Source of the DNA: a virus
Lineage: Duplodnaviria; Heunggongvirae; Uroviricota; Caudoviricetes
DNA length: 64,000 bases
Virus record (IMG/VR): IMGVR_UViG_3300029305_011675
Reading direction: 5' to 3' (one strand)
How positions within the stretch are numbered: position 1 is the first letter of the stretch; every line of letters starts with the position of its first letter. The translations under genes were made by a program, and so were the position numbers. The notes under the pieces are model-generated. The model made no database searches. It saw nothing but the letters and a program-made list of their open reading frames with translations, and was not told the DNA's origin. Below, piece after piece: positions 6,444-55,874 of the stretch.

Positions 6444-6737
6444 GTGATGCAAATTAAATGTTTTATAAATGACAATTTTCGAACACTCTCTTATCTTTAT
6501 GATATTAAAGGTGAGGATAATCGTGCCCGTATCACACAACAAGAGGTGGCTGACGCTCTTGGAATTAGTCGCTCTACGCTAAACAAAATTATGAATGAAC
6601 TGAAAAAAGAAGGTTATGTCGAACAAGATGGTAACTATATGGGTCGCTATATTGTTACGAATGCAGCCATTTCAGTTATCGAGACATTTAGAAGTATTGA
6701 TAAAAACGATAGAGGAGGCACTTATGACAGAAATTAA
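6444..6737 (+). CDS. Small HTH transcriptional regulator
   Basis: 97 aa. ITQQEVADALGISRSTLNKIMNELKKEGYV is a classic helix-turn-helix. RBS aaggtgg. Overlaps the start of the next gene by 14 nt. Confidence 0.65.
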   Translation: MMQIKCFINDNFRTLSYLYDIKGEDNRARITQQEVADALGISRSTLNKIMNELKKEGYVEQDGNYMGRYIVTNAAISVIETFRSIDKNDRGGTYDRN

Positions 6738-9384: not shown

Positions 9385-9386
9385 AT

Positions 9387-10337: not shown

Positions 10338-10661
10338 CACCTTAACTTATTACTGCGAATTTTAAGTTAAATACAAACAAAAATATGGAGTCCGCAATAT
10401 CGGACTCTAAACCAAATATAAAAAAGAAGCCCGCTACTGCGAATAGCGGACTTCCGTATAACAACACTAAAATTAACATTTGTATGACTACCAATCTAAC
10501 AAAAGTGTTTTTTAATGCTGCTTTCTTATTATAGCATTTTCTTATCTAAATGTCAACTCATTTTTGTTAGAAATTCAGTATTCTTATACTTTTGTTAATT
10601 TTGACTAATCTCGTTCCTGCTCGGAACACAAAAATATTAAAATATGATAGGAGTAGATATT

Positions 10662-33869: not shown

Positions 33870-34673
33870 ATGAATTATACAGCAGAATCTCTTGTGAATA
33901 AATTAAGAGAAGAAGAAGGTGTATCAATTTCTGTCAGAACATTAAATTATTATGCTTATGACAAAAAAATGTTTCCCGATTTAGGAAAAGGTAAATGCGC
34001 TTTTACTGATAAAGAATATGAAATGCTCAAGAGAATTACTTATCTCAAAGATAAAACTTCTATGTCTTTGGATGAAATCAGAGATTGCATTGCCAATGAC
34101 AAAGAATATGATAAACAAGTAGACAATGTTATCACTGATGCAGTAAGCAGAAGCAAAACATATTCTGTTTCTGCGAGCGAAACCTATTCTGCCGCAACTA
34201 CTGATACACCTATGACAATAAGTATGAGAAGTGCGAAACAATCGAAAACCGCTTTTATCAACTCTGTAACTTCAGAGTTACCAGAAAACAATTTTAACAA
34301 ACCAAGAAATTTCAATGATTTTATGGATAATTGTTTTTCGCAATCGGTTTCTTCTTGCTCGTCAAATACTGAAAGTAATTCCGTAGCATATTCTGATGAT
34401 AGTTGCAATTTCTCAAATAGTCAAACATCTGTTTGCGATGGATTATGTGCATCTACAACTGCATATAACGGATATGATAACTCTTGTACAAGTGCAAAAG
34501 ATATTATCCCACAAACATTTATTGTCCCAACTGCAATGGTTGCGGAAACAACCAAACCATATAGAGAACAAGAAACAACAGTTCGCATTAATAAAGATGT
34601 TACAATTACAGTATCATCCGATGTATCGCGCGAACGCTTAATCGAAATTATTAACTTTATTAATTCAAAATAA
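33870..34673 (+). CDS. MerR-like HTH N-terminus followed by a Ser/Thr/Cys-rich low-complexity region
   Basis: SISVRTLNYYAYDKKMFPD...FTDKEYEMLKRITYLKD is the MerR helix-turn-helix pattern. Confidence 0.5.
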   Translation: MNYTAESLVNKLREEEGVSISVRTLNYYAYDKKMFPDLGKGKCAFTDKEYEMLKRITYLKDKTSMSLDEIRDCIANDKEYDKQVDNVITDAVSRSKTYSVSASETYSAATTDTPMTISMRSAKQSKTAFINSVTSELPENNFNKPRNFNDFMDNCFSQSVSSCSSNTESNSVAYSDDSCNFSNSQTSVCDGLCASTTAYNGYDNSCTSAKDIIPQTFIVPTAMVAETTKPYREQETTVRINKDVTITVSSDVSRERLIEIINFINSK

Positions 34674-34690
34674 GAAAGGGTCGAAAAATT

Positions 34691-36049
34691 ATGAAAGTAA
34701 ATTTAAGTTTTGCATCAGATAATATTTTTAGCGGAAATTTGAAAAATTTCCTCAAACTCACTATTGATGTGAGTGAAGACAAAAAGAAACACATTAAGAA
34801 AAGCACAAAACCTGTTTTTCTAATCCCAGTTATTGACCGCAGTGGTTCTATGAGTTCTCCTGCCTCTCGCCAGAGAATCCAAGACTCACCTGTATTATTT
34901 AATGATTCTGTGGTAACTTGCAATTCAATCAGCTCAGCATCCTCCTTTACTTATACCAATAGTCTCAGTGGCAGTTACCATGTATCGAAGTTGGATTGTG
35001 CTTTAAGTGCAACTTGTGAATTACTCGATTTACTTAATGAAGGCGACAAATTTGCTGTCGTATCGTTTGATGATGGAATTAGAGTAGAACAGCAACCAAT
35101 CACTGTTAGCAATAAAAATCGAAACGAAGTAAAGTCAAATATCAACAGAATTCGAACTGGTGGTTGTACGAATATTTCTGGTGCTCTCGAAACTGCAGCG
35201 GATTTATTCACTTCTGCAGATACGGAAAAATACAATTGCAAAATCGTTCTTTTATCTGACGGTTGTGCAAATGTTGGACTCGACACAGAAAAACAGTTTA
35301 TAGAATTTATGCCAAAAATCTTAAATCGTAGCATTTCTACATCTTCCATTGGTCTTGGTGATGATTATGACCTTGGAATTATGGAAGCAATTTCTGGTAA
35401 CTGTGCTGGTTCTTTCAATCACATCTCCGATGCACTTGCAATTAAAGACATTTTTGCAACAGAGTTGAAGTCGGCACAAGCAATTGTGTGTAAAGATGCT
35501 ATTGTAAACATAAAACTACCAGATATGGTGGCATTCAAACCTAATTACAATAATTACAACGAAGAAATCCAAAAGGATAATATTTGCATCAAACTTGGCA
35601 ATCTTTATTCCAATAAAACAATCTACTATGAATTTTCTGTATTGGTTGAAGAGTTAAAAGAAGTTGAAATTGCAGTTAGTGTAACTTATGAAACACCTGA
35701 CGGTGGCAAAAATACCGCAACAATGTCTCGAAAACTGCCTATTGTCGCAAAAAAAGAAGACCTTGTCGAAAACAAAGATGTTATTGATGAGATTATGGCA
35801 ACAGTAAAAGACAGATATGTTTATAATGCTTCAAAAGCATATTCCACTGCTGATTACGAAGGCGCTTCTTTGTCCTTTGCAGAATCTGCCGCTACAATCA
35901 ATTCCATGACCGCTTGCTATAGTTGTTGTGCCTCAACCGCAATGGACGAAATCACTGCAACACAGGCATCTCTTACTTCATCTTCAACGTCACAAGATTG
36001 TTTGAGAAAAGCATTCGATAATTCTTCTAAAAAACTTCGAAATTCCTAA
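34691..36049 (+). CDS. von Willebrand factor A (vWA) domain protein
   Basis: The MIDAS motif VIDRSGSMSS lies in an alpha/beta domain. Confidence 0.75.
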   Translation: MKVNLSFASDNIFSGNLKNFLKLTIDVSEDKKKHIKKSTKPVFLIPVIDRSGSMSSPASRQRIQDSPVLFNDSVVTCNSISSASSFTYTNSLSGSYHVSKLDCALSATCELLDLLNEGDKFAVVSFDDGIRVEQQPITVSNKNRNEVKSNINRIRTGGCTNISGALETAADLFTSADTEKYNCKIVLLSDGCANVGLDTEKQFIEFMPKILNRSISTSSIGLGDDYDLGIMEAISGNCAGSFNHISDALAIKDIFATELKSAQAIVCKDAIVNIKLPDMVAFKPNYNNYNEEIQKDNICIKLGNLYSNKTIYYEFSVLVEELKEVEIAVSVTYETPDGGKNTATMSRKLPIVAKKEDLVENKDVIDEIMATVKDRYVYNASKAYSTADYEGASLSFAESAATINSMTACYSCCASTAMDEITATQASLTSSSTSQDCLRKAFDNSSKKLRNS

Positions 36050-36167
36050 TACTTTCTACACAACGGTTCTTTAAAAGAACCGTTGTTTTTTTCTATCATA
36101 ATCTTGACATTAGGATGGAAATGTTATACTATATACAAATAAGAGACTTATAGGAGAGGTGAAATAA

Positions 36168-37841
36168 ATGGGATTACTCCTAATAAATAAAGCAATTTCT
36201 AATACTGACGATTATCCGATGTATTTTTCTAATATGCCAGATAAAACTTTATTTAAAAAGGCAAATATTTATAATAAAAAAGCAACCTCCGCTCCTCAAT
36301 ATATAAACATCAGCAACAACCAAGGTGTTTTTATTCTCGAAAACGGAAAGTTTTCAGATTTTTGTTTTTCAGAAGGAGTATATTATATTGAAGAATGCTC
36401 TTCGCCAGCATTCATCTTTGGCAGATGCGACAGACAAACTGTTGATATGGATTTTTTCACTAATTCTGACTTTTCTTTTTTGGGAAAAGATAGACAATGT
36501 GTTTTCGTAAACTTCAAACCAATTAACAATATAAGCATCTTCCCTCCAGCGCCAATAGAATACAGATATAATAATAAAGATTTTTTAATTGATTTTAGCG
36601 GAGTGTTTTCTGTTAAGATTTCAGACCCCTTTACACTATTTCAAAGAATAGTAACAAATGATGACGGTGAATATTGTATTACTGATAGTTTTGTAACAAA
36701 AATTTCACAAGACCTATTATCTTGTGTGTTAGATGAATTAAAACAATACTCAATGCAAAATGTAAATCCAGAAGAATTAGAACATTTAAGAAATGATATC
36801 ATAAACAATGCGGCCAACCGAGTTACATTTGCAAAAGTGTTAGGACTGAATTTAACAGAAGCAAGGATTGACGATATTGGTTTTGTCCCTGCCGAAGAAG
36901 ACATTGTTGAAGAACCAGAACCAGATATGAAACGATTTTCACAATTTTCTGTTCAACCAATAATGCCAATCGAAATGCCACAAGAATATATTGAAGAAAA
37001 TGTAAAAGAACAGAAAATTGAAATACCAGAAGATTTTGATTTTAATGTTGAAACGATGGAAATTGGTACCGTCGAAGAAAATACTGAAAACGCTGGTATG
37101 ACACAAGATGTACAAGAAGTTAGTTTTGACTTCACCGCATACGAAGAAAAATTTGATGATTTGCAAAATAGTCAAACAGATGTATTCGTACAACAACCTC
37201 CAAAACAAGGTTTCCAACAATATGTACAACTTCCAGTTGAAACAGTTGATGATTGTGACACAAAAGAGAATAATGACAATAACTTCTCTATAGAAATGTC
37301 ACAACGCACACAACATACACAACAGACGACACCTTTCTTCCCATTAACTCAAAATGTACCACCAAATACTTTTGAGAACACGGTTCAATCAATGCAAATT
37401 CAACCAAAAAGGGAAGAACCAAAGCATATTGATGTAGGAATCGAAGGTCTTAACCTTTCAATGTCTGATATGTCTGTTCAAAAACCCGTTAACAAACCAC
37501 AAAATGCAACTATTTTTTCACCATTTGGCGAAGACAATGAATGGTTGTGCCCAAATTGCTTAAATGAAGCAATAGGTGATTTTTGCGGTTTTTGTGGTCA
37601 AAGAAGAGCAACACCTTTTAAGGTAATGCTTAGCCCTACTGACAATTCACAATGGATGTGCAGAAATTGCGGTACACAAAACTATCTCAAATTCTGCAGT
37701 AATTGCGGTCAACCCAAACCAGTAGAAAACACACAACAGGTAGTGCAACAACCACCAAGGTTCTGCCCCTCCTGTGGATATAATTTTACCAATTTTCAAA
37801 GCGTGCCCAAATTCTGCCCAGAATGCGGACTAAAATTTTAA
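36168..37841 (+). CDS. SPFH-like (COG4260/YdjI-like) protein with 3-4 C-terminal zinc ribbons
   Basis: The C-terminus has CPNCL..CGFCG, CRNCG..CSNCG and CPSCG..CPECG pairs. The N-terminal assignment is tentative. Confidence 0.45.
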   Translation: MGLLLINKAISNTDDYPMYFSNMPDKTLFKKANIYNKKATSAPQYINISNNQGVFILENGKFSDFCFSEGVYYIEECSSPAFIFGRCDRQTVDMDFFTNSDFSFLGKDRQCVFVNFKPINNISIFPPAPIEYRYNNKDFLIDFSGVFSVKISDPFTLFQRIVTNDDGEYCITDSFVTKISQDLLSCVLDELKQYSMQNVNPEELEHLRNDIINNAANRVTFAKVLGLNLTEARIDDIGFVPAEEDIVEEPEPDMKRFSQFSVQPIMPIEMPQEYIEENVKEQKIEIPEDFDFNVETMEIGTVEENTENAGMTQDVQEVSFDFTAYEEKFDDLQNSQTDVFVQQPPKQGFQQYVQLPVETVDDCDTKENNDNNFSIEMSQRTQHTQQTTPFFPLTQNVPPNTFENTVQSMQIQPKREEPKHIDVGIEGLNLSMSDMSVQKPVNKPQNATIFSPFGEDNEWLCPNCLNEAIGDFCGFCGQRRATPFKVMLSPTDNSQWMCRNCGTQNYLKFCSNCGQPKPVENTQQVVQQPPRFCPSCGYNFTNFQSVPKFCPECGLKF

Positions 37842-38280: not shown

Positions 38281-38318
38281 AAACTTCTGCACAAATTTTG
38301 TGCAGAAGTTTCTTTTTC
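38281..38318. terminator. Bidirectional terminator
   Basis: aaacttctgcacaaattttgtgcagaagtttcttttt. Confidence 0.8.
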
Positions 38319-39081
38319 AATATTCAAATTTAGGGATAGGTCTTTCCTTAAAAAGATTCTTGCGGTGTTTTTCATCGATAAGTTCTTTCACCTTAACATC
38401 TTCGCACTTACCAGTACGAATGTATTTATCCAATACTGCATAAGTGAAACCGAGATTATCTTCGTCGGTCTTACCACACAAGTCATCCGTAGGAACTCTG
38501 TCTACAAGATGCTTTGGAAGCAGATGTGCAAGTTCGTAACCAATCTGTTTTAGTTCCGTAACAGTAAAACTCTTCAAAGGGGCAAAATCACCGACGCTAT
38601 CGCCCCATCTTGTAGAATAACCCACCCAATCTTCAGAAAGATTACAGGTGTTTACTACGCGACCATTACAGGACTGGGATACCGCATAAAGAGTAGACAT
38701 ACGAATTCTCGGAGCGAGATTGATGGCAGTCTGTTCACTCACATCCTTATTCATTGCATTCTCAATGCAGTGAATAAGAGAACAATACGGTGCATTGATA
38801 GGTACGGTATAGCATACAATACCAAGACTCTTAACAACATCGTTTACCGCATTCATAGTCTGATTAAGTGCATCCTCGGTTACTTGAACCGTATTTGGCA
38901 TCGTAACACCAATCACCCTATCTTTACCCAATGCTTCTACACACAAGGCGGCGGCGATGGAACTATCCTTACCACCAGAAATACCAATAATGGCATTACA
39001 ACCCTTTCCGTTCTCTTCGAACCACTGACGAATCCACTCAACAATATCATTTTTAACCTTCAAAGCATTAAATTTTTCCAT
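38317..39081 (-). CDS. nadE: NH3-dependent NAD+ synthetase
   Basis: IIGISGGKDSS is the SGGxDS PP-loop. 254 aa, typical for NadE. Confidence 0.85.
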   Translation of the reverse strand: MEKFNALKVKNDIVEWIRQWFEENGKGCNAIIGISGGKDSSIAAALCVEALGKDRVIGVTMPNTVQVTEDALNQTMNAVNDVVKSLGIVCYTVPINAPYCSLIHCIENAMNKDVSEQTAINLAPRIRMSTLYAVSQSCNGRVVNTCNLSEDWVGYSTRWGDSVGDFAPLKSFTVTELKQIGYELAHLLPKHLVDRVPTDDLCGKTDEDNLGFTYAVLDKYIRTGKCEDVKVKELIDEKHRKNLFKERPIPKFEY

Positions 39082-39140: not shown

Positions 39141-40937
39141 TTAGAAATTGCCATTATTCAAACGAGCACGAATTTCTGCAAGAGAATATTCCTTAACCAT
39201 CACACCATCTTCGAAAATGGTTTCAAGCATATTATCTGCATATTCTTCGCTTTCCATGTCTTCGAAAGTTAAGCAATCCTTGTAAAGAATATCGCCACTT
39301 TCGTCTTCGTAAACATAGCACATTCCCTTCTGGGACTTTTTGAAGTTATTGCCAGCAGAATGGTCGGTCTTGGGGTCCTTGTAAATCTGGGTTTCCTTGC
39401 CATCGATGATAGCATTGGTTGCCTTCAATGCCTGACCGAGAGAGTCACGAGTTACACACTGATAGGTATAAGAACCAATACCAAGAGTTACACAAGTAAC
39501 TGCATACTGCTTATCCATCAATCTCTGATAGATTTCAACTGCTCGCTCATAGGTGATAGCATCACCATAGATAGCACCGATATGCTCATCAAGAACCTTA
39601 AATCCCTTTGCATTGATATAACCACCGAAAATTTCAAACAGAATTTCAACCGTTCCCTTCATTTCGGGAGTAATATAGGTTTTCTTATAATCAACGAATT
39701 CAACAGTTTCACCGTAGCATCCGCCTTCACCGTCATCGGTTTCGGCAATCCATTCGTGTTCGCAAGTAACCTCATAAAGATAATCGCCAATACGAACACG
39801 ATACCAAGTTTCAGAAGTACCATTCCAAGGATATTCGTCTTCTGCCTTCTTCTTAAAGTATGCCTTAATACCGTCTTCGGTAAGACCATCGACTACCATA
39901 TAGTCTTTTGCCTTCAAAGTACCGCAGATAATATCGACAGGGTCGCCAGAGTCGCCACGAATAATAATCTTGCCGTTACGATTCATAATGCTTGCCTTAA
40001 GACGAGGCAAATAGTTGGTGAGCACATTCCAATAATCATAGGTGTCAGATACCATGCTTAAAGGACCAGCAGGAAATACATCTTCAATCAAGTGACGGTA
40101 ACATTCAAACTCGCCCTCACGACCATAAGAGCTCATAACGCTGTGTTCGGTAGAAGGACAACCACGACCAACGACTTCCTTGGTACAATCACAGTTATAG
40201 TACTCTTCCAACCAAGGAATTGCACTAATGGTTGCGGTGTTCACGAAAGAAAGCAGGTGAGCAGCAGAACTCTTGGCAGCACCTTCGATACTGGTCATGC
40301 CTCTCATGGAGAAATCACCACAAGCAGTATTTTCCTTATCATTAAGGCAATCTGCATTCATTGCAGTTTTCATATCGCCATCGACACGAGCAACAGCAGT
40401 CTTGGAAACACTCTTCTCAAATGCATCATTGACAACCTTACGGTATCTCCAAGCAACAGTAGCAGAGTTGATAGGATGCCAAACATTAACAGAGAGATAG
40501 GTTTCCAGATAATTTACAAGCCAACCATAACCAGCAACGGTGTTCTTGAACTCATAAATAGGAGTACGGATGTTTGCAACAGTGCCTTCGGGAAGTGCCT
40601 TAATACGAATAGGCAGATACCCCAAAGAATGCAATGCTTCGAGAATTGTAGTGTCTGCTGCCTGAACACTCATAGTATTCGCAATATAGCGGATGTACTC
40701 TTCCTTAATCTCTTCGATAGGACGCTTAAAGAAATGCTCATTAAAGTACTCAATGAGATACTTCTTTGCAGTACCCTGCAGACCGAAAACAACTGCCTTA
40801 TTGCAATCTTCATATCTGCTCTTTCGAGGTGTCCAGTAACTTACCAGATATTCCAACTTGGGAACATAGGCAAGGTGATGGATGGTCTTATAAAAATCGG
40901 TTAACAACATGGGAATAAGTCTTTCAAATTTACTCAT
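39141..40937 (-). CDS. Nicotinamide phosphoribosyltransferase (NAMPT/NadV-like) with a ~100-aa insertion
   Basis: LTDFYKTIHH corresponds to TDSYKVTHY, IKALPEG to IKAVPEG, DFSMRGMTS to DFGYRGVSS, MVSDTYDYW to VVSDSYD and IIRGDSGDPVD to IIRPDSGNPLD. RBS aaaggag. Confidence 0.8.
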   Translation of the reverse strand: MSKFERLIPMLLTDFYKTIHHLAYVPKLEYLVSYWTPRKSRYEDCNKAVVFGLQGTAKKYLIEYFNEHFFKRPIEEIKEEYIRYIANTMSVQAADTTILEALHSLGYLPIRIKALPEGTVANIRTPIYEFKNTVAGYGWLVNYLETYLSVNVWHPINSATVAWRYRKVVNDAFEKSVSKTAVARVDGDMKTAMNADCLNDKENTACGDFSMRGMTSIEGAAKSSAAHLLSFVNTATISAIPWLEEYYNCDCTKEVVGRGCPSTEHSVMSSYGREGEFECYRHLIEDVFPAGPLSMVSDTYDYWNVLTNYLPRLKASIMNRNGKIIIRGDSGDPVDIICGTLKAKDYMVVDGLTEDGIKAYFKKKAEDEYPWNGTSETWYRVRIGDYLYEVTCEHEWIAETDDGEGGCYGETVEFVDYKKTYITPEMKGTVEILFEIFGGYINAKGFKVLDEHIGAIYGDAITYERAVEIYQRLMDKQYAVTCVTLGIGSYTYQCVTRDSLGQALKATNAIIDGKETQIYKDPKTDHSAGNNFKKSQKGMCYVYEDESGDILYKDCLTFEDMESEEYADNMLETIFEDGVMVKEYSLAEIRARLNNGNF

Positions 40938-41003
40938 AACAATATCTCCTTTTATTTTGGTTTTGTGATATTTTTTACTTAATATCACTTTGATGTTAAG
41001 TAG

Positions 41004-41032
41004 ATTATAGCACAAGATTTTCGATTTGTCAA
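41004..41032 (-). promoter_or_regulatory. Sigma-A promoter, copy 1 of a duplicated ~50-bp promoter region (40986-41036)
   Basis: The reverse complement reads ttgacaaatcgaaaatcttgtgctataat. The second copy is at 46372-46420, upstream of the NADAR-nicotinamidase operon. Confidence 0.7.
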
Positions 41033-41095
41033 GACCTTTTCGATAAAAAAATAAAAAAAAGATGCGATTCTTTTTTAGAACCGCATCATAGTAGA

Positions 41096-41756: not shown

Positions 41757-41811
41757 GCTTTTTTCATTTCTTTCATATATAATTAAGAAATAACTCAATA
41801 GGAGGGTGTTT

Positions 41812-42522
41812 ATGGGAAATATTTTAGTTTTAGGTGATTGTTTGGAAAATATGAAAAAGATGCAGTCTAAAACAGTCGATTGTGTCATAACGGATATTCC
41901 ATATTTTCAAGTTGTTGATGACGATTGGGATAATCAATGGAAAAATAGCGAAGAATATTTGGAATTTATACATAATTGCATTAAAGAATTCGATAGAATT
42001 ACGAAAGATGATGCTTCAATTATTATGTTTACAGGAAGACAATACAACCGTCACATTGCATTGCTTTTAGATAAATATTTTGAAGAAAGAAGAATAATTA
42101 TCTGGAGCAGAAAAAGAGCATTTAATAATACTCGTGGCAAAGCACTTGCTTCTGGTTATGAACCAATTTGCTATTACACAAAGGGCAATCCTGTTTTTAA
42201 CAACATAAAAATCCAATCCGAATCCAAAAGAAAAGAGTACACAGAGGGAACACTGAAAGATGGTGTCTCTCTTTCGGATGTGTGGAGCGATATCCCAGCA
42301 TTACCGCATAACTCAAAAGAAAAAGTAAAACACTCGTCCCAAAAACCAATTGCTTTAATGGAAAGATGTGTTTTACTTTGCAGTAAAGAAAATGATACGG
42401 TTTTAGACCCTTTTATGGGTAGTGGTTCTACTGGTGTTGCTTGTAAAAACTTAAATAGAACATTTATTGGCATTGAAGCAAACAAAGAACATTTTGAGTT
42501 AGCAAAACACAGAATCCACTAA
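41812..42522 (+). CDS. Orphan beta-class N6A/N4C DNA methyltransferase
   Basis: Motif IV CVITDIPYF, then motif I LDPFMGSGSTGVAC. RBS aggagggtg. Confidence 0.8.
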   Translation: MGNILVLGDCLENMKKMQSKTVDCVITDIPYFQVVDDDWDNQWKNSEEYLEFIHNCIKEFDRITKDDASIIMFTGRQYNRHIALLLDKYFEERRIIIWSRKRAFNNTRGKALASGYEPICYYTKGNPVFNNIKIQSESKRKEYTEGTLKDGVSLSDVWSDIPALPHNSKEKVKHSSQKPIALMERCVLLCSKENDTVLDPFMGSGSTGVACKNLNRTFIGIEANKEHFELAKHRIH

Positions 42523-43660: not shown

Positions 43661-43930
43661 GTGAAAGAAAAAGAGATTTTTATCATAGAGCATTTATTTG
43701 ACTTGCAAGGTTGCGGTCGTGTTGAATTTGGAGTAGAAGAAATCGGTTATTTTGAAAACGAAGACGATGCGAAATCATATGTAGAAAAGTATTCCTGTTG
43801 CAAAGTATATGATAAGACAATGCGATATGGAAAGTTGAGATATAGACGAGAAAGTATCCCCACAAAACTAACTCTCAACACCCCACCTGATTTCAAGGGG
43901 ATGGGTTTTAAAGAACAAAAAGAAGGTTGA
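43661..43930 (+). CDS. Hypothetical protein; GTG start
   Basis: RBS ggagg. A terminator follows at 43921-43952. Confidence 0.45.
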   Translation: MKEKEIFIIEHLFDLQGCGRVEFGVEEIGYFENEDDAKSYVEKYSCCKVYDKTMRYGKLRYRRESIPTKLTLNTPPDFKGMGFKEQKEG

Positions 43931-43961
43931 TTTTCATCAACCTTCTTTTTCTATGCCCAAA

Positions 43962-44801
43962 TTACAAATCGACTTTAGTAATTAACGGATGTTCTTCTGT
44001 AAAAATACTATTAGTTGTATAGATATTTTCGACCAAATCAGACTTAATCAAGTCGCCAGTGAGAATTGTGTTTTCGCAATGAGTGATGTAAAGACCGATA
44101 TTGGTCGCCCCACACTCTCGGAGTGCCTTTGCAGAATAATAGAATGTTCCACCCTTGGAACAGATATCATCGACAATAAGAACTCTCTTGCCATCAAGTA
44201 ACTCTTTTCCGACAACCTCAAGACCAAGGATTTTAGCAGTGCTCCAATCACGGTTTTTATTTGCATAAGCAACAGGATAAGCATGCTTATTTTTCGTACT
44301 TCTGCCGTGCATTGCTTTGCCGTTGATGATATCTGCATATCTCTTACAACTTCCTTCATCGGGGAAGAAAATCACATCAGGATTATACATCTCAATAGCA
44401 TTATTGATATATTTACCAACATCAAGTTGCACAACACGGTCAATAAGTGCCAAAGAAACACTGGAATGTGCATCAAGAACAAAAACTTTTTCAAAGTTCA
44501 TCATGTTGATTAACTGGCAGAAATACTTTAAAGTAAAAACTTCAGATATTTCCTTCGTTCTATCCATTCTTGCATTAGGAATATAATACATATATAGATA
44601 AAACTTTGCATCTCTCGGAGCATGCTCTCTCAAATGCATTACAACATTAAAAAGAAGCATAGTTTCGTCGTTATTTTCATAATACCATTCAAATGCAAAT
44701 TCGTTTTCGTTTACGATTTCAGCAAAAAATTCATTCTTAATTGCCATGGTGCCATCTGGGAATCTACCCATTTCAACAATATTTTCATTAAGTTTAATCA
44801 T
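43962..44801 (-). CDS. Divergent ribose-phosphate pyrophosphokinase (Prs)-like phosphoribosyltransferase-fold protein
   Basis: RFPDGT corresponds to Prs FsDGE, VIFFPDEGSCKRYA is also Prs-like, and VLIVDDICSKGGT is the PRPP-binding loop. The canonical Prs N-terminal motif is absent. RBS aaggagtg. Confidence 0.6.
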   Translation of the reverse strand: MIKLNENIVEMGRFPDGTMAIKNEFFAEIVNENEFAFEWYYENNDETMLLFNVVMHLREHAPRDAKFYLYMYYIPNARMDRTKEISEVFTLKYFCQLINMMNFEKVFVLDAHSSVSLALIDRVVQLDVGKYINNAIEMYNPDVIFFPDEGSCKRYADIINGKAMHGRSTKNKHAYPVAYANKNRDWSTAKILGLEVVGKELLDGKRVLIVDDICSKGGTFYYSAKALRECGATNIGLYITHCENTILTGDLIKSDLVENIYTTNSIFTEEHPLITKVDL

Positions 44802-46344: not shown

Positions 46345-46388
46345 AATGTACATCTCCTTTTACTTATTATCATTTTGATGTTAAGTAG

Positions 46389-46417
46389 ATTATAGCACAA
46401 GTTTTTTGATTTGTCAA
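46389..46417 (-). promoter_or_regulatory. Sigma-A promoter, copy 2 of the duplicated promoter region (46372-46420)
   Basis: The reverse complement reads ttgacaaatcaaaaaacttgtgctataat, near-identical to 40986-41036. Confidence 0.7.
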
Positions 46418-46539
46418 GAGTTTTAAGACAAAAAATAAAAATTATTTTCAATTTGATATTAAGTCCATTTTTGTGTTGACATTAGCACTTGTTTATGATA
46501 TAATATATGTAGAAATATAACCACAAAGGAGAATATATT

Positions 46540-47872: not shown

Positions 47873-48307
47873 TTATTCGAGTGCATCTGGGATTCCATCA
47901 CCATCGGTATCTCCGCAAATATGGTCAACATCGTCAGCACTTACCATGCCAGAACCAACCATTTCACGACCCGCCACTCCACGTTCTCTTCTACGCTTTT
48001 CAACTAATTCGCTAATAAAGTGATGGACATCTTTCGGTTTTTTAATATTTTTAAGTTCCAATACTCTATCTGTTTGGTCTGCAGAATACAATGTAACTGT
48101 TCCTACTCCAAAAATTTTCTGCCAAAAAGTTCTTTTTGTTTTGATATCCAAAATTCTGTATAAAAGAATTTCGTCAGAATTTGTTGTGAAGAAACCCTTA
48201 TCTAAATAAAGTCTCTCTTCGTCAACTGCATACTTTGTAAAAGAAATTGGCATCCCCATGTGTCTCTTTCTGTCTTTCCATAAAATTGATTTTTCACATT
48301 TGCTCAT
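47873..48307 (-). CDS. Bacterial PH (bPH_2/YdbT-like) domain protein
   Basis: DEILLYRILDIKTKRTFWQKIFGVGTV fits the bPH_2 pattern. Overlaps the 3' end of the C5-MTase gene by 14 nt. Confidence 0.45.
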   Translation of the reverse strand: MSKCEKSILWKDRKRHMGMPISFTKYAVDEERLYLDKGFFTTNSDEILLYRILDIKTKRTFWQKIFGVGTVTLYSADQTDRVLELKNIKKPKDVHHFISELVEKRRRERGVAGREMVGSGMVSADDVDHICGDTDGDGIPDALE

Positions 48308-49502
48308 TATTATCTGCTCCTTTTAATTTTATTTTTAGCAATTGTTCTGCTATATAAACAATGACATCAACATTGGCACTGTTACCAAGTTGCTTATATG
48401 CCATGTGTTCATTTTTGTTTAATATGTAATTTTCTGGGAAAGATTGCAATCTTGCCGCTTCTCTTGGAGTAATTCTCCTCAAATATTTTCCGACAATAGA
48501 TGTTTGCACTATGGCAACGAGAGCAGGAAAAGTGCTTGTTCTTTTACACCTTATTCCCGATTGTCTCAATTGTATAAGTGTTTCATAAACACTATCTGCG
48601 GTGTCTCCCGCTTGCCATTCAAGTTTCCTATCTCTCTTTTTGAATTTATTAACTTCAAAAAGTTGCATCCAAGCGTCTAAATATTCTTTGTTGTTTAAAT
48701 AAAATTCTCTATTTTTTTGACAATAGTCCTGTTTCCACTTTGGCAAATTTGTATAATCATAATCTTGACCAAATTCGTCAATCAAAATTGGTGAGATTAC
48801 TTTTTTATTATGCTTCCTAAAGTGTTTAATTAAAGCATCCCATGCTCTTAATACATCTCCTTCATATTCACTTATTGCATATTCGGAATAATTATCTATA
48901 TGTCTGTCCAAAACGGAAAATACACTTGTGCTAGGATAATTTTCTTTATTTGGAACATCGATTTCGATATATTCTCCTTCATAATAATCTCGATGAATAC
49001 CAACAATAAAAATACGTTCTCTATTTTGTGGTACTCCTATATGATGAGGAGAAACGATTAGTGGGTCTTTTGTTAAAACATAACCAAGGTCACTTAAATG
49101 CTCTTTAATTACCCTAAATGTATTTCCATCATCGTGATTTACAAGGTGCTTTACGTTTTCTAAAATAATATACTTTGTTTTGTGATATTTTAAAATTCTT
49201 TCAATCTCAAAAAACAAAGTTCCTCTTGTATCAACAAAACCCTTCTTATGTCCAGCATTTGAAAATGGCTGACAAGGAAAACCTGCACACAAAATATCAT
49301 GTTTGGGAATATCTTCTGCTTTCACATCGAATATGTTGCAGTCAGAACTCATGTTGAAATTTTCTTCATAAGTTTCGATTGCATATTTATCTATTTCTGA
49401 TGCAAAAACACATTTGCCTCCAAGTTTTTCAAGTGCTAAATGAAAAGCGCCAATACCAGCAAACAGGTCGATAAAAGTAAAAGAATTATTCAATTTTATC
49501 AC
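48294..49502 (-). CDS. dcm: DNA (cytosine-5)-methyltransferase
   Basis: Motif I is FIDLFAGIGAF, motif IV CAGFPCQPFS and motif VI ENV. Confidence 0.9.
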   Translation of the reverse strand: MIKLNNSFTFIDLFAGIGAFHLALEKLGGKCVFASEIDKYAIETYEENFNMSSDCNIFDVKAEDIPKHDILCAGFPCQPFSNAGHKKGFVDTRGTLFFEIERILKYHKTKYIILENVKHLVNHDDGNTFRVIKEHLSDLGYVLTKDPLIVSPHHIGVPQNRERIFIVGIHRDYYEGEYIEIDVPNKENYPSTSVFSVLDRHIDNYSEYAISEYEGDVLRAWDALIKHFRKHNKKVISPILIDEFGQDYDYTNLPKWKQDYCQKNREFYLNNKEYLDAWMQLFEVNKFKKRDRKLEWQAGDTADSVYETLIQLRQSGIRCKRTSTFPALVAIVQTSIVGKYLRRITPREAARLQSFPENYILNKNEHMAYKQLGNSANVDVIVYIAEQLLKIKLKGADNNEQM

Positions 49503-49602: not shown

Positions 49603-52395
49603 TTATTCAAATGAAAATTCGCTAAAATCCATTCCCATACATTCAGTCCAAAAATCATACGACGTTCCGTGATATGTTTGTACAAGGAAGAATAAATTAA
49701 ACCAACTTCCTGTATCTTCTGATGTTTGCCCAGTTTCAGATGACACAGATTCAATCATGGTAGTTCTTGCTTCTTCTGCGAAGTTTTTAACAATTTTCAT
49801 AATCCATTTTGGCATTCTCGAATATTCAACTTTTATATCAAATTTAATATCGAGATATTCATTGTCTGGTATCTGATTATCTCCAACAATAACATCCATC
49901 ATATATTGTGTTAGTTTTTCAGAAATTTGAGCATCAGTCATTGTTTGTTCAAGACTGTTATCTTCTTCGTAAATAAGAATTGGACTTCCAAATAAACTTC
50001 CAATTGGAGACCATACGATTAAGAAATCTTTTTCTACTGTATCATCCTTAAATGCATGACCCTCAACAGACATATTTTGAATTTGCTTTGTTGGCATTTC
50101 ACCAATACCAAGTTCTCCAAAAATATCGCCAATAACAATCAATTGTTCATCTGTATACCCAAGTTTTCTTGCTGCTTTTTCGACATTACTTCTTACATCG
50201 AGGAAATTAGACCAGTCATCGTATCCGTAAAACATAGACTGATACCAAATCTTTGCTACATCCTCATTTGTAAAACCTCTTTGAGTCATTCTAAATGCGG
50301 CACGACTCAATAATATACCGTTAATGTGGCAATCATCGTTGCTCCAATTTTCTCCGAGATAAGTATCTGGATATTTTGTGCCCCAAAGTTCATTACCAGA
50401 AGCACCAGTTGCATCTCTTAATGGTTCTCCCAACCATTCAGCCATTTGCCAATCATTATCAATTAGGCACCCAAAAATATCGGCATATGCCTCATTGATG
50501 GAAGAAAAATTCATTGAACTACCGTCCGCCGTAATCGCATCGAAAACACCGTGAGTATACTCGTGTCCAATTACATCCACACCTGCACAAAGTGCATACT
50601 TAAATGCTGGTGCATCTCCACAGATGAAAAATCTAAAATCTCCGCCAAGATATGAGGCATTATTTTTAGCAGCAGGAGAATTTACAACACATTTTATTTC
50701 TTTACCTTTTCCATCAAAAGAAGTTCTTCCAAGAGTATCTTTATACCAGTCATATGTCGTGATAAAATTCTTATATGCAGAAACACCCTGACCAGCATCT
50801 TTGAAAGTGTTTTTTGTACTCGAAATTGGTAAACCAAACTGCTTTTTTAAAACGACTATCATCATTGGTGCATCATCACCCCAAAAGATTTCATCACCGA
50901 TATCAGTAATATTGTGTGAACCATCAATGATTTTGATATTTCTTCCCGTATCTTCAAGGAAATACAAAGCCGCTTTATTTGCTTTAAACACTTGGTCTTC
51001 ACCGAACACATCCTCGCCATAAGCGGTTGTCATAGACCCCAAACCAGTCGAAATTTCAACATCTGCTACTACTTTTTTGGAGTCAATGTCTAAATAAACA
51101 GTTTTGATAACAATTTTATCATTTTCTTGTCCTAAAGCAGTACACTTATATACAAGATGTGCTTTTTCTTCTGACACGAAAATACCTTTTGTGTGTTCTG
51201 TGATTTTGATTGTAATGCCATAATGAGAAGACAATACAGAATTAATTTCATCTTCGGTCATTTCACCGTTAGTGCCGACATTGATATTTCTAACAATATT
51301 TAAGTTAATTGAATCCAAATGATTAGAAGCGTTAGTTGTCATTGTAACAGTTCTACCAAAGACAGGCAAATCGTTGTAGTATTGTTCAACCATAAAACAT
51401 TTACCTTCTAGTGCCGTCTGAACATCACAAACTTTAAATTCTACTTCATCACCTATATTCATAAGTTGTCTATACTTATTAAGTACTTTTATAGCATCAT
51501 CAGCAGAAGAAACGATTGTAGAATTGAAATTACCATCAATACTATCGATAATATCATCCTCGTTGTAAGTGATAACCATATTGTTGTTTCCGATGCCTTT
51601 TTCAATATCTTCGGGTGTTAACACAAAGATATCTTCATCATCAATTACGTCTGTCTTTATAACGGTAATATAATAATCTTTTTTACCAGTTCCTAAACCG
51701 TGTTTTACTTCTGCCGTTAATTTAACAACAGCATTTGCATTACTCGGTCTATTTACCTCTCCTATTGTATTAAGCACATTAGGATTATCACTTGACCATT
51801 GGATTTTTTCCACATCGCCCTCGCCGACTTCAATTTCTTGCGGAATTACAATGTTGTCAGTTACATAATCACAATAGTTTGTATCGACATATTCAAAAGG
51901 TTGGTCGCTCAAAATATTTTGTAGATATTCTGTTGCTACATTATTTTGCCACTTAAATAAACCAAAGATACCTGCACCAATTAAGATTAAAGATAAGAAA
52001 ATCCATAAACCAATGTGCTTTTTCTTTTTCTTTCCTTTAACCTTTTTATCCTTCTTTGTCTTTTTAGGTTGTTCAGGCGTCATAGGAGGAGTTTGTGGTG
52101 TTGGCGGTACTGGTGGTACTGGTGGAATAGGAATTTGTGTGGGCGGTTGCAGCGGTGCGATAGGTTGTTGTTGCATATACTGCGGATTATTGTATTGCCC
52201 ATAAACCCCACCATTTTGTGTTGGTTGAGTTGGAGGATTTGGATTTCGATATCCATTATTTTGTCCACCAATTACAAATTGAGGATTTGTGTTTTGTGTA
52301 TTTTGCATAGGGACATTATTCATGTTTTGTGGCATAGGTCTTCCCTGATAATTATTATCAGTCGGAATCCCGTTACCAAATTGATTGTTGTCCAT
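49603..52395 (-). CDS. Membrane-anchored M4 (thermolysin-like) zinc metallopeptidase with a Pro/Gln/Asn-rich N-terminal tail
   Basis: VIGHEYTHGVFD is the HExxH motif, followed by INEAYADIFG (the third zinc-ligand Glu). One TM helix. RBS aaaaggag. Confidence 0.8.
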   Translation of the reverse strand: MDNNQFGNGIPTDNNYQGRPMPQNMNNVPMQNTQNTNPQFVIGGQNNGYRNPNPPTQPTQNGGVYGQYNNPQYMQQQPIAPLQPPTQIPIPPVPPVPPTPQTPPMTPEQPKKTKKDKKVKGKKKKKHIGLWIFLSLILIGAGIFGLFKWQNNVATEYLQNILSDQPFEYVDTNYCDYVTDNIVIPQEIEVGEGDVEKIQWSSDNPNVLNTIGEVNRPSNANAVVKLTAEVKHGLGTGKKDYYITVIKTDVIDDEDIFVLTPEDIEKGIGNNNMVITYNEDDIIDSIDGNFNSTIVSSADDAIKVLNKYRQLMNIGDEVEFKVCDVQTALEGKCFMVEQYYNDLPVFGRTVTMTTNASNHLDSINLNIVRNINVGTNGEMTEDEINSVLSSHYGITIKITEHTKGIFVSEEKAHLVYKCTALGQENDKIVIKTVYLDIDSKKVVADVEISTGLGSMTTAYGEDVFGEDQVFKANKAALYFLEDTGRNIKIIDGSHNITDIGDEIFWGDDAPMMIVVLKKQFGLPISSTKNTFKDAGQGVSAYKNFITTYDWYKDTLGRTSFDGKGKEIKCVVNSPAAKNNASYLGGDFRFFICGDAPAFKYALCAGVDVIGHEYTHGVFDAITADGSSMNFSSINEAYADIFGCLIDNDWQMAEWLGEPLRDATGASGNELWGTKYPDTYLGENWSNDDCHINGILLSRAAFRMTQRGFTNEDVAKIWYQSMFYGYDDWSNFLDVRSNVEKAARKLGYTDEQLIVIGDIFGELGIGEMPTKQIQNMSVEGHAFKDDTVEKDFLIVWSPIGSLFGSPILIYEEDNSLEQTMTDAQISEKLTQYMMDVIVGDNQIPDNEYLDIKFDIKVEYSRMPKWIMKIVKNFAEEARTTMIESVSSETGQTSEDTGSWFNLFFLVQTYHGTSYDFWTECMGMDFSEFSFE

Positions 52396-52560
52396 AACGA
52401 TATCTCCTTTTTTATGTAATTTCATATATTATACAATATTTTTGCAACTTTGTCAACAAAATAGAAACTGAACAAATATTAGAAAAAGTTGCATTATTTT
52501 TTGATTTTTTATGTAAACCGATATATTATATAATAAAATATTCCTTTTGGTGGTGTTTTT

Positions 52561-53922: not shown

Positions 53923-54277
53923 ACGAATGGATATCTCGTCTAACAACCTCACCTGTACTATCCATAACCCACGAATACAATTGTGCAGTTACAACATCGC
54001 CCTTTTCGACACCCCAATGTTGCGGAGCGAACATGCCTCCGCCTTCGGAAGTTATCGTTTTTTCTAATCCATACTCTTCGCTTTTAACGGTTATCTCAAT
54101 GATGTAATGATGTGTCGTAGCAAACCAATGTTTCCTGTTGACATTGGTAACAACAACATCAATATCTTTCCAGTACAAATGTGGTTGTTCTGGCCGTTCC
54201 ACGGGTTCTAAATCACACCCAACAAGAGAAAAGACAATCAATACTCCGAGCAGAATGCAAACAAACCGTTTAATCAT
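53915..54277 (-). CDS. Lipoprotein, hypothetical
   Basis: Starts at MIKRFVCILLGVLIVFSLVGC (lipobox). Last gene of the Nudix operon. Confidence 0.55.
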   Translation of the reverse strand: MIKRFVCILLGVLIVFSLVGCDLEPVERPEQPHLYWKDIDVVVTNVNRKHWFATTHHYIIEITVKSEEYGLEKTITSEGGGMFAPQHWGVEKGDVVTAQLYSWVMDSTGEVVRRDIHSLK

Positions 54278-54986
54278 CGAGTTTCTTCTTTCGATAAACT
54301 TTTGCAGGACGATATGCCATACCATAGACAGTCTTATCGGTTTCTTCAATACGACTGTCCATAGTGCGCTTAAAGTTACTGATAGGTTTATTTAAAATGG
54401 TCTCAAAAGTTCCCTGTAAAGAACCAACAGTAAACTCCTCTTCTTCAAACTCGAAACCGATATCAGAATAAAACAACTTACCACGAACTCTTTCAAGCGC
54501 CTTTGTGATAATTTTCCCGTGGTCAAAAGCAAGGTCGTCAAAAGTTAAAGTACGAAGTGTATCAATACCAATCAAGGTGTTATCATCAAGAATCTCAAAC
54601 CACTCACCAGCATGAGTTCCATACTGCTTTGTAAAAGTATGAGGTTTCATAATTCCAACATATGCCGTAGAAATAACACGCCAACGACTATCACGGTCAA
54701 TACCATCGAAGGTGTAAAGTTGCTCAAGGTAATACTGGTCATAGCCAGTCTTTTCAAAAACCTTTCTGCGAGCAACTTCCTCAATAGTTTCGTCAATGCC
54801 GACGAAACCACCAGGAAGAGACCACTTACCCTCATAAGGTTCTGTATCTCTTCGAATCAAGAGAACACGAAGACTTTTCTTGCTCTTCTGTCTTTTGTCA
54901 ATGATTTTATCGTGAACCTTAAACATAACGACGTCTGCCGTTACCGAAGGTCTCTCATAACTCATAAAATTTTTATTATCGCTCAT
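54270..54986 (-). CDS. NUDIX hydrolase (ADP-ribose pyrophosphatase-like) with a C-terminal extension
   Basis: The Nudix box is GKWSLPGGFVGIDETIEEVARRKVFEKTG. Confidence 0.8.
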   Translation of the reverse strand: MSDNKNFMSYERPSVTADVVMFKVHDKIIDKRQKSKKSLRVLLIRRDTEPYEGKWSLPGGFVGIDETIEEVARRKVFEKTGYDQYYLEQLYTFDGIDRDSRWRVISTAYVGIMKPHTFTKQYGTHAGEWFEILDDNTLIGIDTLRTLTFDDLAFDHGKIITKALERVRGKLFYSDIGFEFEEEEFTVGSLQGTFETILNKPISNFKRTMDSRIEETDKTVYGMAYRPAKVYRKKKLDD

Positions 54987-54996
54987 TTTTCTTACC

Positions 54997-55431
54997 TCAC
55001 TTTTGGACTATTTCTGCCAATCTTCCTTCTTTTTCTGGCAGAATTCCTTTTCTCAAATCATCAAGTGTAATTACATGACTGCATCCATTCATCATCATCA
55101 AAGAATAATCGCAATCATCCCCGCAACAAACTTGGTAAACCTTTTTGCCTTTTCCAAAGGCATATCCTGCTTCCCAAGCAGTTCCGCTGTCGGAATACAT
55201 TCCGAAATTAAGCACAAATACATATTCACTTTCGCAAAGTGCTTTTCTATCAAGCGCGAAGACCTTTTCTGCCCAAACATGGTTTTCGATTTCTGTGCCG
55301 TTTTCTATTTCGTGTTCCATTGGAACATATACTTCTGTGTCCTTCAATGCCCGCAAAAGTTCGATTACTTCTTTATAGACAACCAATTCTTTTTCAGAGA
55401 AAAAAGGACTTGCTAAATACACTTTTCTCAT
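54997..55431 (-). CDS. Nucleoside 2-deoxyribosyltransferase-like protein
   Basis: VYLASPFF is followed by SDSGTAWEAGYAFGKGKKV. Confidence 0.7.
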   Translation of the reverse strand: MRKVYLASPFFSEKELVVYKEVIELLRALKDTEVYVPMEHEIENGTEIENHVWAEKVFALDRKALCESEYVFVLNFGMYSDSGTAWEAGYAFGKGKKVYQVCCGDDCDYSLMMMNGCSHVITLDDLRKGILPEKEGRLAEIVQK

Positions 55432-55760
55432 AGTGTTTCACCACTATCTTCGAAAACAACAGAGGATTTCGCCTGTTCTTCGGTTACTGTAATAATTTCT
55501 CCTTTGATGTTATAAATAACATAAGAACCTACAGGCGGATACATACGACAGGCAGAATTCGGTTTTACATAACCAATCTTTTCTTGGTCACCGCAAATAC
55601 CATTGCAAGAGCAATATCCGCTGTTTTGATATTCACAATCGCAATTTCGACCACGCTTGCACATCACATCAAAACCATCGTAATCTTCCTCGCTATTGAT
55701 TCTGAATGCCTTTGCTGGCATAATGACCTTACAGTTTACACTTTTTCTATTTTCAAACAT
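55428..55760 (-). CDS. Cys-rich hypothetical protein
   Basis: 110 aa with 10 Cys. First gene of the operon, driven by the promoter at ~55790-55820. Confidence 0.45.
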   Translation of the reverse strand: MFENRKSVNCKVIMPAKAFRINSEEDYDGFDVMCKRGRNCDCEYQNSGYCSCNGICGDQEKIGYVKPNSACRMYPPVGSYVIYNIKGEIITVTEEQAKSSVVFEDSGETL

Positions 55761-55874
55761 ATTATAACAATCCTTTCCTGTTTTATTGTACTTACATTAT
55801 ATCATATTGATATTAAGTTGTCAACCCCTTTTTGCAAAAATAACACCACTTTTTTCAGAAGTGGTGTTATGTAT

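Follow-up and report, generated by a model that had tools for sequence, protein, structure and literature searches.

A NAMPT-family gene in a set of NAD genes

The DNA analyzed here, referred to as the window, is a 64,000-nucleotide stretch of the IMG/VR virus record IMGVR_UViG_3300029305_011675 (Caudoviricetes). It encodes, on its minus strand, a protein of the NAMPT family that is the subject of this work, together with further genes of NAD metabolism. The longest open reading frame (ORF) over the interval of interest runs from 41015 to 39141 on the minus strand. Because of the homologues and of a Shine–Dalgarno sequence, AAGGAG, located 8 nt upstream, the start was set at the ATG at 40937, which with the stop at 39141 predicts a protein of 598 amino acids (aa). 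The NAD genes are the following (PRPP, phosphoribosyl pyrophosphate; ADPR-PP, ADP-ribose pyrophosphate).

39141–40937, minus strand: Namat/NAMPT-family gene, 598 aa, with a pocket termed A-type below (Pfam, NCBIfam, PHROG, PDB and AlphaFold2)
38317–39081, minus strand: NadE, NH3-type NAD synthetase, 254 aa (Pfam NAD_synthase, E 5e-47; TIGR00552)
43962–44801, minus strand: PRPP-synthetase-like gene, candidate Adps (ADPR-PP synthetase), by similarity to phage Adps
45355–46353, minus strand: fusion of NADAR (YbiA-like) and nicotinamidase (PncA-type isochorismatase) (Pfam)
54270–54986, minus strand: NrtR-like regulator, Nudix plus NrtR winged helix (Pfam)

Pfam recognizes both NAPRTase (PF04095; E 5.9e-30, 105 bits, cut-off 20.8) and NAMPT_N (PF18127; 26.8 bits, cut-off 25) in the 598-aa protein, which also matches NCBIfam PRK09198 (461 bits, cut-off 405) and PHROG 448 (E 1.4e-160). 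This architecture agrees with an earlier note on the locus, made from the sequence alone, that had announced a NAMPT/NadV homologue. The protein is not a PncB: with the curated model TIGR01513 it reaches 19.2 bits, where the cut-off is 297.4. Among all PDB sequences, the top match is the Namat of phage SPβL1 (9W5X/9W5W, E 1.8e-128; structures described in PMC12774641), followed by 9KE8/9KEO (E 3.6e-105; 9KE8 is H. ducreyi NadV), Xanthomonas NAMPT (~1e-55) and human NAMPT (~1e-50). All of these matches align as two blocks, residues 10–352 and 426–592. An AlphaFold2 model of the whole protein, based on 51 sequences, has a pLDDT of 89.6 and a pTM of 0.85, and its best fold match is Namat 9W5X, with a target-normalised TM-score of 0.94. 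The protein is thus predicted to sit on the Namat branch of the NAMPT family as a dimeric type-II phosphoribosyltransferase (PRT). The connection to Namat that the earlier note had drawn is strengthened by the sequence and fold matches, which are both best for SPβL1 Namat, by the presence of the SCL Arg and of an SCH that is Namat-like apart from Cys at position 7, and by the Adps-like gene located 3 kb away.

A comparison with NAMPT/NadV enzymes (human NAMPT, H. ducreyi NadV 9KE8 and the KVP40 NARP2 enzyme) reveals the same NAMPT_N and NAPRTase architecture and the same catalytic machinery. The similarity is, however, far lower (human NAMPT, ~1e-50), NAMPT retains Asp219, and neither enzyme has the insertion described below, the helix at that site being unbroken in human NAMPT. 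With the NARP1 Namats (SPβL1 9W5X/9W5W and the FADO and Bas63 homologues), the window protein has in common the fold, the dimeric type-II PRT core, the catalytic His, the F/Y stacking pair, the R/D ribose ligands, the SCL Arg and an SCH that has the length of the Namat one and resembles it in type. It differs from them in having Ala in place of the nicotinamide Asp, three more changes in the pocket and two insertions (~100 aa).

The catalytic set aligned to the Namat and human residues consists of H265, F209, Y16, R212, R327 and D329 (human H247, F193/Y18', R196, R311 and D313). Since every catalytic residue is intact, a pseudo-enzyme was rejected. The core NAMPT motifs reported earlier are indeed found at His265, F209, R212, R327, D329 and D14/Y16, but the set is incomplete at the nicotinamide Asp, which is Ala235.

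A remodelled nicotinamide pocket and a largely retained adenine clamp

The ligand contacts published for Namat (PMC12774641) were mapped onto the window protein via the sequence alignment to 9W5X. The positions discussed below are encoded as follows.

40233–40235, minus strand: codon of Ala235, at the position of the nicotinamide Asp (Namat D215, human D219) (alignment)
40152–40154, minus strand: codon of Ser262, in place of Ala (Namat A242, human A244) (alignment)
40317–40319, minus strand: codon of Gly207, in place of His (Namat H187, human H191) (alignment)
39954–39956, minus strand: codon of Gly328, in place of Pro in the R-P-D-S-G catalytic strand (alignment)
39444–39476, minus strand: SCH adenine-clamp motif GSYTYQCVTRD, residues 488–498 (Namat signature)

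The contacts that are kept, with the Namat residues given first, are D13'/Y15' (D14/Y16), F189/S190/R192 (F209/S210/R212), R306/D308 (R327/D329), G360-D361-A362 (G458-D459-A460), the catalytic His (H265) and R40' of the SCL (R41). Four pocket residues are changed: D215 to A235, A242 to S262, H187 (human H191) to G207 and P307 to G328. Namat D215, or D219 in the human enzyme, forms a hydrogen bond with the nicotinamide amide group and is the residue that sets the specificity of NAMPT (PMC12774641; PMC7096376; PMC9322656), and a Namat D215A mutant has measurable activity left, ~8-fold lower (PMC12774641). Ala occupies the Asp position in 120/120 close homologues and at 46/46 A-type loci, and G207, A235, S262 and G328 are invariant in the 51-sequence alignment. 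Across the homologues and the A-type loci, the change of Asp to Ala covaries perfectly with those of His to Gly, Ala to Ser and Pro to Gly. A specificity shift on the pyridine side, from nicotinamide to nicotinate, by way of these four point substitutions, which the earlier note had not pointed out, is therefore probable. The NARP1 Namats take nicotinamide, favour ADPR-PP over PRPP and form NAD+ directly; the pocket residues of the window protein speak against nicotinamide as its substrate. By their sequences, the proteins carrying them appear to form a large and previously undescribed A-type subfamily, defined by G/A/S/G at these positions versus H/D/A/P.

Namat's selectivity for ADPR-PP has been placed in the SCL/SCH clamp, and the Namat SCH has the signature GSXΦXΦXΦTRD (PMC12774641). 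The SCH motif of the window protein, GSYTYQCVTRD, compares with GSFTYQYNTRD in SPβL1 Namat and GAQTYQRNTRD in H. ducreyi NadV, in which, unlike in Namat, neither position 3 nor position 7 is aromatic. The length, the frame and position 3 (Tyr) of the window motif are Namat-like, and position 7 is Cys; among 120 relatives, position 7 is Tyr in 84 and Tyr or Phe in 91. The SCL of Namats provides a stacking Arg, Lys or Tyr, which is R40 in SPβL1. The SCL Arg of the window protein, located in the sequence PRKSR41, aligns with that of Namat (PRTSR40) and is present in all A-type loci. Most A-type members keep the complete Namat clamp (R41 and GS[YF]TYQ[Y]xTRD).

Gene context across genomes

A scan of GTDB species genomes and IMG/VR yielded 54 loci, and neighbouring genes were scored there and at additional loci. 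Pocket residues were scored at the 58 loci with a near-full-length homologue, of which 46 are A-type and 12 are Asp-type. The A-type members (G/A/S/G) belong to many Clostridium species, Oscillospiraceae, Ruminococcus, an archaeal metagenome-assembled genome (MAG) and a viral contig; the Asp-type members (H/D/A/P) include FADO, Kirov, Tsamsa, Paenibacillus and others, with Glu at the Asp position in Kolpuevirus. PncA is found nearby at 42/46 A-type and 0/12 Asp-type loci (Fisher p = 2e-9, a value that overstates the independence of these related loci), NadE at 27/46 and 0/12, NrtR at 39/46 and 1/12, and a Prs-like gene at 43/46 and 10/12, respectively. Compared with the NARP1 Namats, the window enzyme also has an Adps-like partner, but in a separate operon under the same operator, and PncA, NadE and NrtR stand alongside it, in contrast to their near absence from the Asp-type loci.

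On long metagenomic contigs that carry bacterial housekeeping genes, the gene order is nrtR – Prs-like – pncA – (unknown) – NAMPT-like – nadE, and a closer relative of the window element has the same gene set in a contiguous arrangement. No NadD-motif ORF was found in 63 loci, and no PF01467 (CTP_transf_like) gene in four fully annotated neighbourhoods or among the window ORFs scanned. A separate lineage, L061 (IMG/VR UViG_3300028833_000055, 363 kb, match at 10001–11488), has Ser at the His, Asp and Ala positions of the pocket and a long NAMPT-type SCH, with PncA, NadE and a Prs-like gene as its neighbours. The nicotinamide Asp may have been lost convergently in this lineage. Because it too is accompanied by PncA and NadE, pure phylogenetic hitch-hiking is argued against. 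An unannotated protein of 255–261 aa with a charged, coiled-coil-like C-terminal part is encoded between pncA and the insertion-bearing Namat-like gene in two bacterial operons (L004, 9037–9822; L006, 9032–9799); it has no homologue in the window.

In the window, nadE lies 59 nt downstream of the Namat-like gene and is co-transcribed with it, with a terminator at 38281–38311. The Adps-like gene is located on the same strand, 3 kb from the Namat-like gene, and is followed by a terminator at 43917–43950. Its product shares 33–35% identity with FADO Adps and with the Kirov and Tsamsa homologues, and scores 117–146 bits against FADO/Kirov Adps versus 37 bits against the PRPP synthetase (PRPS) of B. 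subtilis; canonical PRPS in the PDB are matched only at E 1.7e-8. These scores group the gene with phage Adps and not with housekeeping PRPS. The NARP1 of FADO has been validated genetically (Osterman et al. preprint).

Aligned with 1ILW, the PncA of P. horikoshii, the C-terminal half of the NADAR–nicotinamidase fusion shows an intact Asp/Lys/Cys triad and an intact D-x-H…H metal motif. The relative L007 has this fusion as well; in C. carboxidivorans (L048) and in L035, NADAR stands as a gene of its own. ADP-ribose from ADP-ribosylated substrates might enter the pathway through NADAR. The NrtR-like regulator of the window is 43–51% identical to the NrtR at the head of the bacterial operons. 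Two further genes are co-transcribed with it, a nucleoside 2-deoxyribosyltransferase-family gene (54997–55431, minus strand) and a 110-aa ORF with no family match (55428–55760, minus strand). NARP3 (PnuC and NadR) was dismissed, as no such genes are present.

A common promoter–operator design

Three operons of the window, Namat-like–NadE, NADAR–PncA/Adps-like and NrtR, share one promoter–operator design, which comprises the following elements.

40977–41032, minus strand: promoter TTGACA-17-TATAAT (41004–41032, 12/12) followed by a palindromic operator (40977–41001), Namat-like–NadE operon
41061–41087, minus strand: terminator insulating the Namat-like operon from the upstream gene
46362–46464, minus strand: promoter (46389–46417, 12/12) and two operator palindromes (46362–46386 and 46440–46464), operon of NADAR/PncA, two small ORFs and the Adps-like gene
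55794–55823, minus strand: promoter with an operator palindrome in its spacer (55794–55818), operon of the 110-aa ORF, the deoxyribosyltransferase-like gene and NrtR

The regions upstream of the Namat-like and NADAR–PncA genes contain a ~70-bp stretch that is nearly identical, with a perfect promoter and an extended −10, and the 25-bp palindrome ACTTAAnATCAnnnTGATnTTAAGT directly follows the promoter of both operons. The palindrome pattern is found in 4 copies in the 64-kb window, where chance would give 0. Every copy adjoins or overlaps a perfect sigma-70 promoter of an operon of the NAD gene set, and the palindrome is probably the NrtR operator. A search of IMG/VR with the promoter/operator 28-mer gave no match. 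A related box, ACATAATATCAAnTTGATATTATCT, is located ~45 bp upstream of nrtR in 19 Clostridium genomes (L014, L016, L018, L020, L023, L026, L027, L030-L033, L036, L038-L040, L042, L045, L046 and L049), where it precedes a conserved operon of the order nrtR–Prs-like–pncA–Namat-like(–nadE). No description of this operon type was found in the 2008 paper on the NrtR regulon. NrtR is a repressor that is freed from DNA by ADP-ribose (PMC2330246), and the whole gene set would therefore be wired to respond to a product of NAD cleavage.

An inserted mini-domain and a β-hairpin

The window protein exceeds its structurally characterized relatives at two sites, both of them lineage-specific additions to the surface.

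39663–39911, minus strand: insertion B, residues 343–425, a helix and a three-stranded antiparallel sheet (the segment singled out in the earlier note)
40344–40403, minus strand: insertion A, residues 179–198, a β-hairpin (gap relative to 9W5X; AlphaFold2 strands 180–186 and 189–196)

The main insertion amounts to ~73 aa with respect to Namat (residues 353–425) and to ~85 aa with respect to NadV or human NAMPT, and insertion A (residues 179–198, ~20 aa) makes up the remaining extra length. The insertion of ~100 aa described in the earlier note is accordingly genuine but smaller, at ~73–85 aa, the rest residing in the separate ~20-aa insertion. As the two-block alignment of the PDB sequences indicates, the segment quoted there has no counterpart in the solved NAMPT or Namat structures.

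In the whole-protein model, insertion B is formed by a helix (residues 354–367) and three strands (376–383, 386–398 and 406–421). The same secondary-structure elements were obtained when the 91-aa insertion was folded alone by AlphaFold2 (pLDDT 90.9), and the models portray it as an autonomous mini-domain and not as a floppy loop. It starts 14 residues past the catalytic D329 and is spliced into the helix that follows the R-G-D-S-G strand. By topology, this is the catalytic-face end of an α/β barrel helix, beside the G-D-A loop that in Namat touches the AMP half of NAD, a placement that gives no ground for calling the insertion remote from the active site. The conserved polar residues of the region are D345, Y346, E354, R382 and K427.

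The 120 closest metagenomic homologues, which are 58–99% identical to the window protein, are nearly all 572–617 aa long. Insertion B is kept in 118 of the 120, and insertion A in about 20%. Its retention in these homologues and its confident folding by AlphaFold2 argue that insertion B is no artefact. P0118 and P0120 (525 aa) are devoid of it and otherwise ~70% identical over the aligned core. Among close relatives, the insertion changes faster than the core, with identities of 30–60% versus 68–77%. An insertion profile compared with 1.84 billion representative proteins gave one other full-length match, the NAMPT-like P0121 of a more distant clade, in which the insertion is 63% identical and the rest of the protein 47%. 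Most of the 68 remaining profile matches are of the LysM type and were rejected; a short 'Y-x-V-x-x-G-D-x-L-Y' strand motif is matched repeatedly in them, and AlphaFold2 predicts a β-hairpin instead of the βααβ fold of LysM. A word-indexed homology search with the 91-aa insertion alone gave no candidates, and the insertion has no detectable fold relatives. A free-standing 73-aa ORF, P0160 (L064, 138–359, on a 1-kb contig), resembles the first two-thirds of the insertion (profile E 4.9e-5). Only this one case was met, and the genes around it are not NAMPT-like; it hints that the insertion could stem from an independent small gene.

The insertion site, located between 'DSGDPVxIICG' and 'GTVExLWxxFGG', is a family-wide hot spot of length variation. 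There are 0 extra residues in some lineages, in which the helix is unbroken as in human NAMPT. SPβL1/FADO Namat and the Clostridium proteins have 12–13, the Oscillospiraceae 17 and one MAG 57. Lengths of 82–95 are found in the window protein and its relatives and, separately, in Kirov, Tsamsa, a Paenibacillus genome, an IMG/VR contig and the crAss-like Kolpuevirus 'frurule'. The Namats of the Bacillus phages Kirov and Tsamsa and of Kolpuevirus 'frurule' carry their insertion of ~90 aa at exactly the same site and with the same order of elements (a helix, then β-strands), but it has its own invariant motifs, TPHGE and RYDKQYY. These proteins have an Asp-type pocket (Glu in Kolpuevirus) and a gene context with an Adps-like gene only. 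Homology between the two kinds of insertion was considered and is not demonstrated (hhalign probability 3.5%). The Asp-type Namats with the other insertion of ~90 aa are those of Kirov (L001, 5968–7704), Tsamsa (L003, 6001–7719), Kolpuevirus (L002, 5989–7710), L029 and L060, and no description of the TPHGE/RYDKQYY insertion was met in the literature search. Judged by sequence, insertion B appears to be an accessory decoration at a length-variable hot spot and not a determinant of the substrate; a role as a lid, in partner docking or in stability is conceivable.

A predicted deamidated route to NAD and its alternatives

NAD depletion is a major antiviral strategy of bacteria. To our knowledge, every pathway for rebuilding NAD that has been described (NARP1–3) runs via amidated intermediates. 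For the window, we favour a Namat-branch enzyme with accessory insertions that acts in an ADPR-inducible PncA/Adps/NadE/NrtR route, in which nicotinate and ADPR-PP yield nicotinic acid adenine dinucleotide (NaAD) and then NAD; we give this reading a probability of about 0.45. In such a route, PncA would deamidate nicotinamide to nicotinate, and the Adps-like enzyme would pyrophosphorylate ADP-ribose to ADPR-PP. The A-type enzyme would join nicotinate and ADPR-PP to form NaAD, bypassing NadD, and NadE would amidate NaAD to NAD+. The gene set would be switched on by NrtR as ADP-ribose accumulates, for instance after NADase attack. The route would be a deamidated form of NARP1. Extended to the whole subfamily, and held a little more tentatively, the proposal is that A-type proteins are nicotinate ADP-ribosyltransferases (nicotinate and ADPR-PP to NaAD and pyrophosphate) of an ADPR-inducible, deamidated NARP1, a pathway chromosomal in many Clostridia/Oscillospiraceae that large mobile elements or phages have taken up, with the mini-domain as a mobile accessory module.

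The closest known arrangement is the NrtR-controlled Preiss–Handler operon nrtR-pncA-pncB-nadD-nadE of C. acetobutylicum (Rodionov et al. 2008, PMC2330246). Common to both are the control by NrtR, a palindromic operator, PncA, NadE and a predicted nicotinate route. The window differs in having a Namat-family protein instead of PncB, no NadD and an added Adps-like gene. The system would work like NARP1 (Adps and Namat; Osterman et al. preprint) grafted on the deamidated half of the Preiss–Handler pathway under NrtR. A full-text literature search, beyond whose coverage further publications are possible, gave no publication in which NARP1, ADPR-PP or Namat is connected to nicotinamidase, NadE, nicotinic acid or NaAD. 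No such link is made in the Osterman preprint or in the NARP3, RyDEP and aRES papers, and the Namat structure paper none for nicotinic acid or NadE.

Three features suggest the use of ADPR-PP over PRPP: the Namat clamp is retained, the partner is Adps-like, and NadE occurs where NadD does not. This part of the proposal is weaker than the part that concerns nicotinate. Several observations weigh against the proposal as a whole. The assignments of nicotinate and ADPR-PP come from residue logic and gene context. The loci are phylogenetically related, and Fisher p-values consequently overstate their independence, while NadE is missing at 19/46 A-type loci, some of them on truncated contigs. At SCH position 7, the window protein has Cys and not an aromatic residue. 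The A-type members L050, L059 and P0121 have a long NAMPT-like SCH, devoid of the Namat clamp, in the same gene context, so that context alone is no proof of ADPR-PP use. Finally, human NAMPT also binds nicotinic acid (PDB 6TA0, 6TA2), and the loss of the Asp therefore need not mean the exclusive use of nicotinate.

The main rival, which we consider unlikely but ahead of the others, is a substitute for PncB in ordinary Preiss–Handler salvage. The enzyme would make nicotinic acid mononucleotide from nicotinate and PRPP, the Prs-like protein would be a PRPP synthetase, and a host NadD and the NadE of the operon would finish the route. The context of PncA, NadE and NrtR resembles the operon of C. 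acetobutylicum, Namat keeps PRPP activity in vitro (PMC12774641; Osterman et al. preprint), and both the Cys of the window clamp and the long-SCH members in the same context point this way. NadD, however, is never part of the operon, unlike NadE, which is often included, the adenine-clamp residues of Namat are conserved through most of the clade, and the Prs-like gene groups with Adps. A smaller possibility, and a rather improbable one, is an ordinary Namat/NAMPT that still uses nicotinamide, the pocket changes being neutral or compensated, for example by Ser262 hydrogen-bonding the amide, and PncA and NadE being co-regulated genes of a parallel salvage. Every catalytic, ribose and phosphate ligand is intact, the best matches are Namat, and the D215A mutant of Namat is still active, if ~8-fold reduced. 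Set against this, the 46 loci and 120 homologues all have these four changes, which covary perfectly with PncA/NadE. A nicotinamidase expressed together with the enzyme would break down the substrate that it needs, and D215/D219 is a documented specificity determinant.

The earlier note had suggested that the insertion accompanies an altered substrate specificity. Altered specificity is likely, but the insertion as its correlate is not supported. That the inserted domain itself reshapes the active-site entrance, and thereby creates a new donor or acceptor specificity, is very improbable. The placement of insertion B on the catalytic face, 14 residues after D329 and beside the G-D-A loop, which in Namat is in contact with the AMP portion of NAD, would suit such a role, as would its well-folded nature, its conserved polar residues (D345, Y346, E354, R382 and K427) and its higher conservation than the core in the distant clade (63% vs 47%). 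The validated Namats (SPβL1, FADO) nevertheless have no insertion, and among close relatives the insertion evolves faster than the core. It comes and goes within both pocket types while the pocket residues, the clamp and the operon are unchanged. No full-length insertion is found at 41/46 A-type loci with the same pocket residues and operon context; the insertion-poor A-type proteins include those of Clostridium (489 aa) and Oscillospiraceae (~525 aa). Since an insertion at this site is present in both A-type and Asp-type pockets, and no full-length copy at these 41 loci, it was rejected as the specificity determinant. Large insertions recur here as decoration, and their presence should not be taken as a marker of changed specificity.

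If the nicotinate and ADPR-PP route is correct, it comprises a new enzymatic reaction (nicotinate and ADPR-PP to NaAD) and a fourth, deamidated route of NAD reconstitution that bypasses NadD, and it accounts for the extra NadE and nicotinamidase that travel with the 'NAMPT' gene. The module would then be an ordinary ADPR-inducible operon of many gut and soil Clostridia, borrowed by mobile elements. An anti-defence role of the NAD gene set is plausible; the operon of Clostridia lies on the chromosome, where it may serve no more than ADPR-responsive NAD recycling. The four-residue signature G/A/S/G versus H/D/A/P can be used for re-annotating proteins named 'nicotinamide' or 'nicotinate phosphoribosyltransferase'.

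The surrounding element

None of 20 larger ORFs of the window matches a structural PHROG, and two large ORFs have no informative phage matches. The element may be a phage, a plasmid or of another kind. Two consecutive plus-strand ORFs (10644–12812 and 12826–14433) match phage 'transposase' and 'DNA transposition protein' PHROGs and are Mu A/B-like; they are preceded by a 922-aa helicase and a DNA methyltransferase (6616–10337). The window encodes three DNA methyltransferases (9387–10337, 41806–42522 and 48294–49502), of which one matches methyltransferase PHROGs only, one is of the N6/N4 type and one of the C5 type, and an S-adenosylmethionine synthetase, MetK, at 60120–61175. Their combination is suggestive of anti-restriction.

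At 33870–37841, just beside the NAD operon, a MerR-like gene, one with a VWA domain and one for a zinc-ribbon-rich, weakly SPFH-like protein are arranged in the same order as in the relative L007, and a second SPFH (Band_7) gene is located at 57457–59109. The minus strand also encodes a 940-aa thermolysin-like M4 metallopeptidase with an Ig-like domain (49603–52425), which is unusual cargo for a mobile element.

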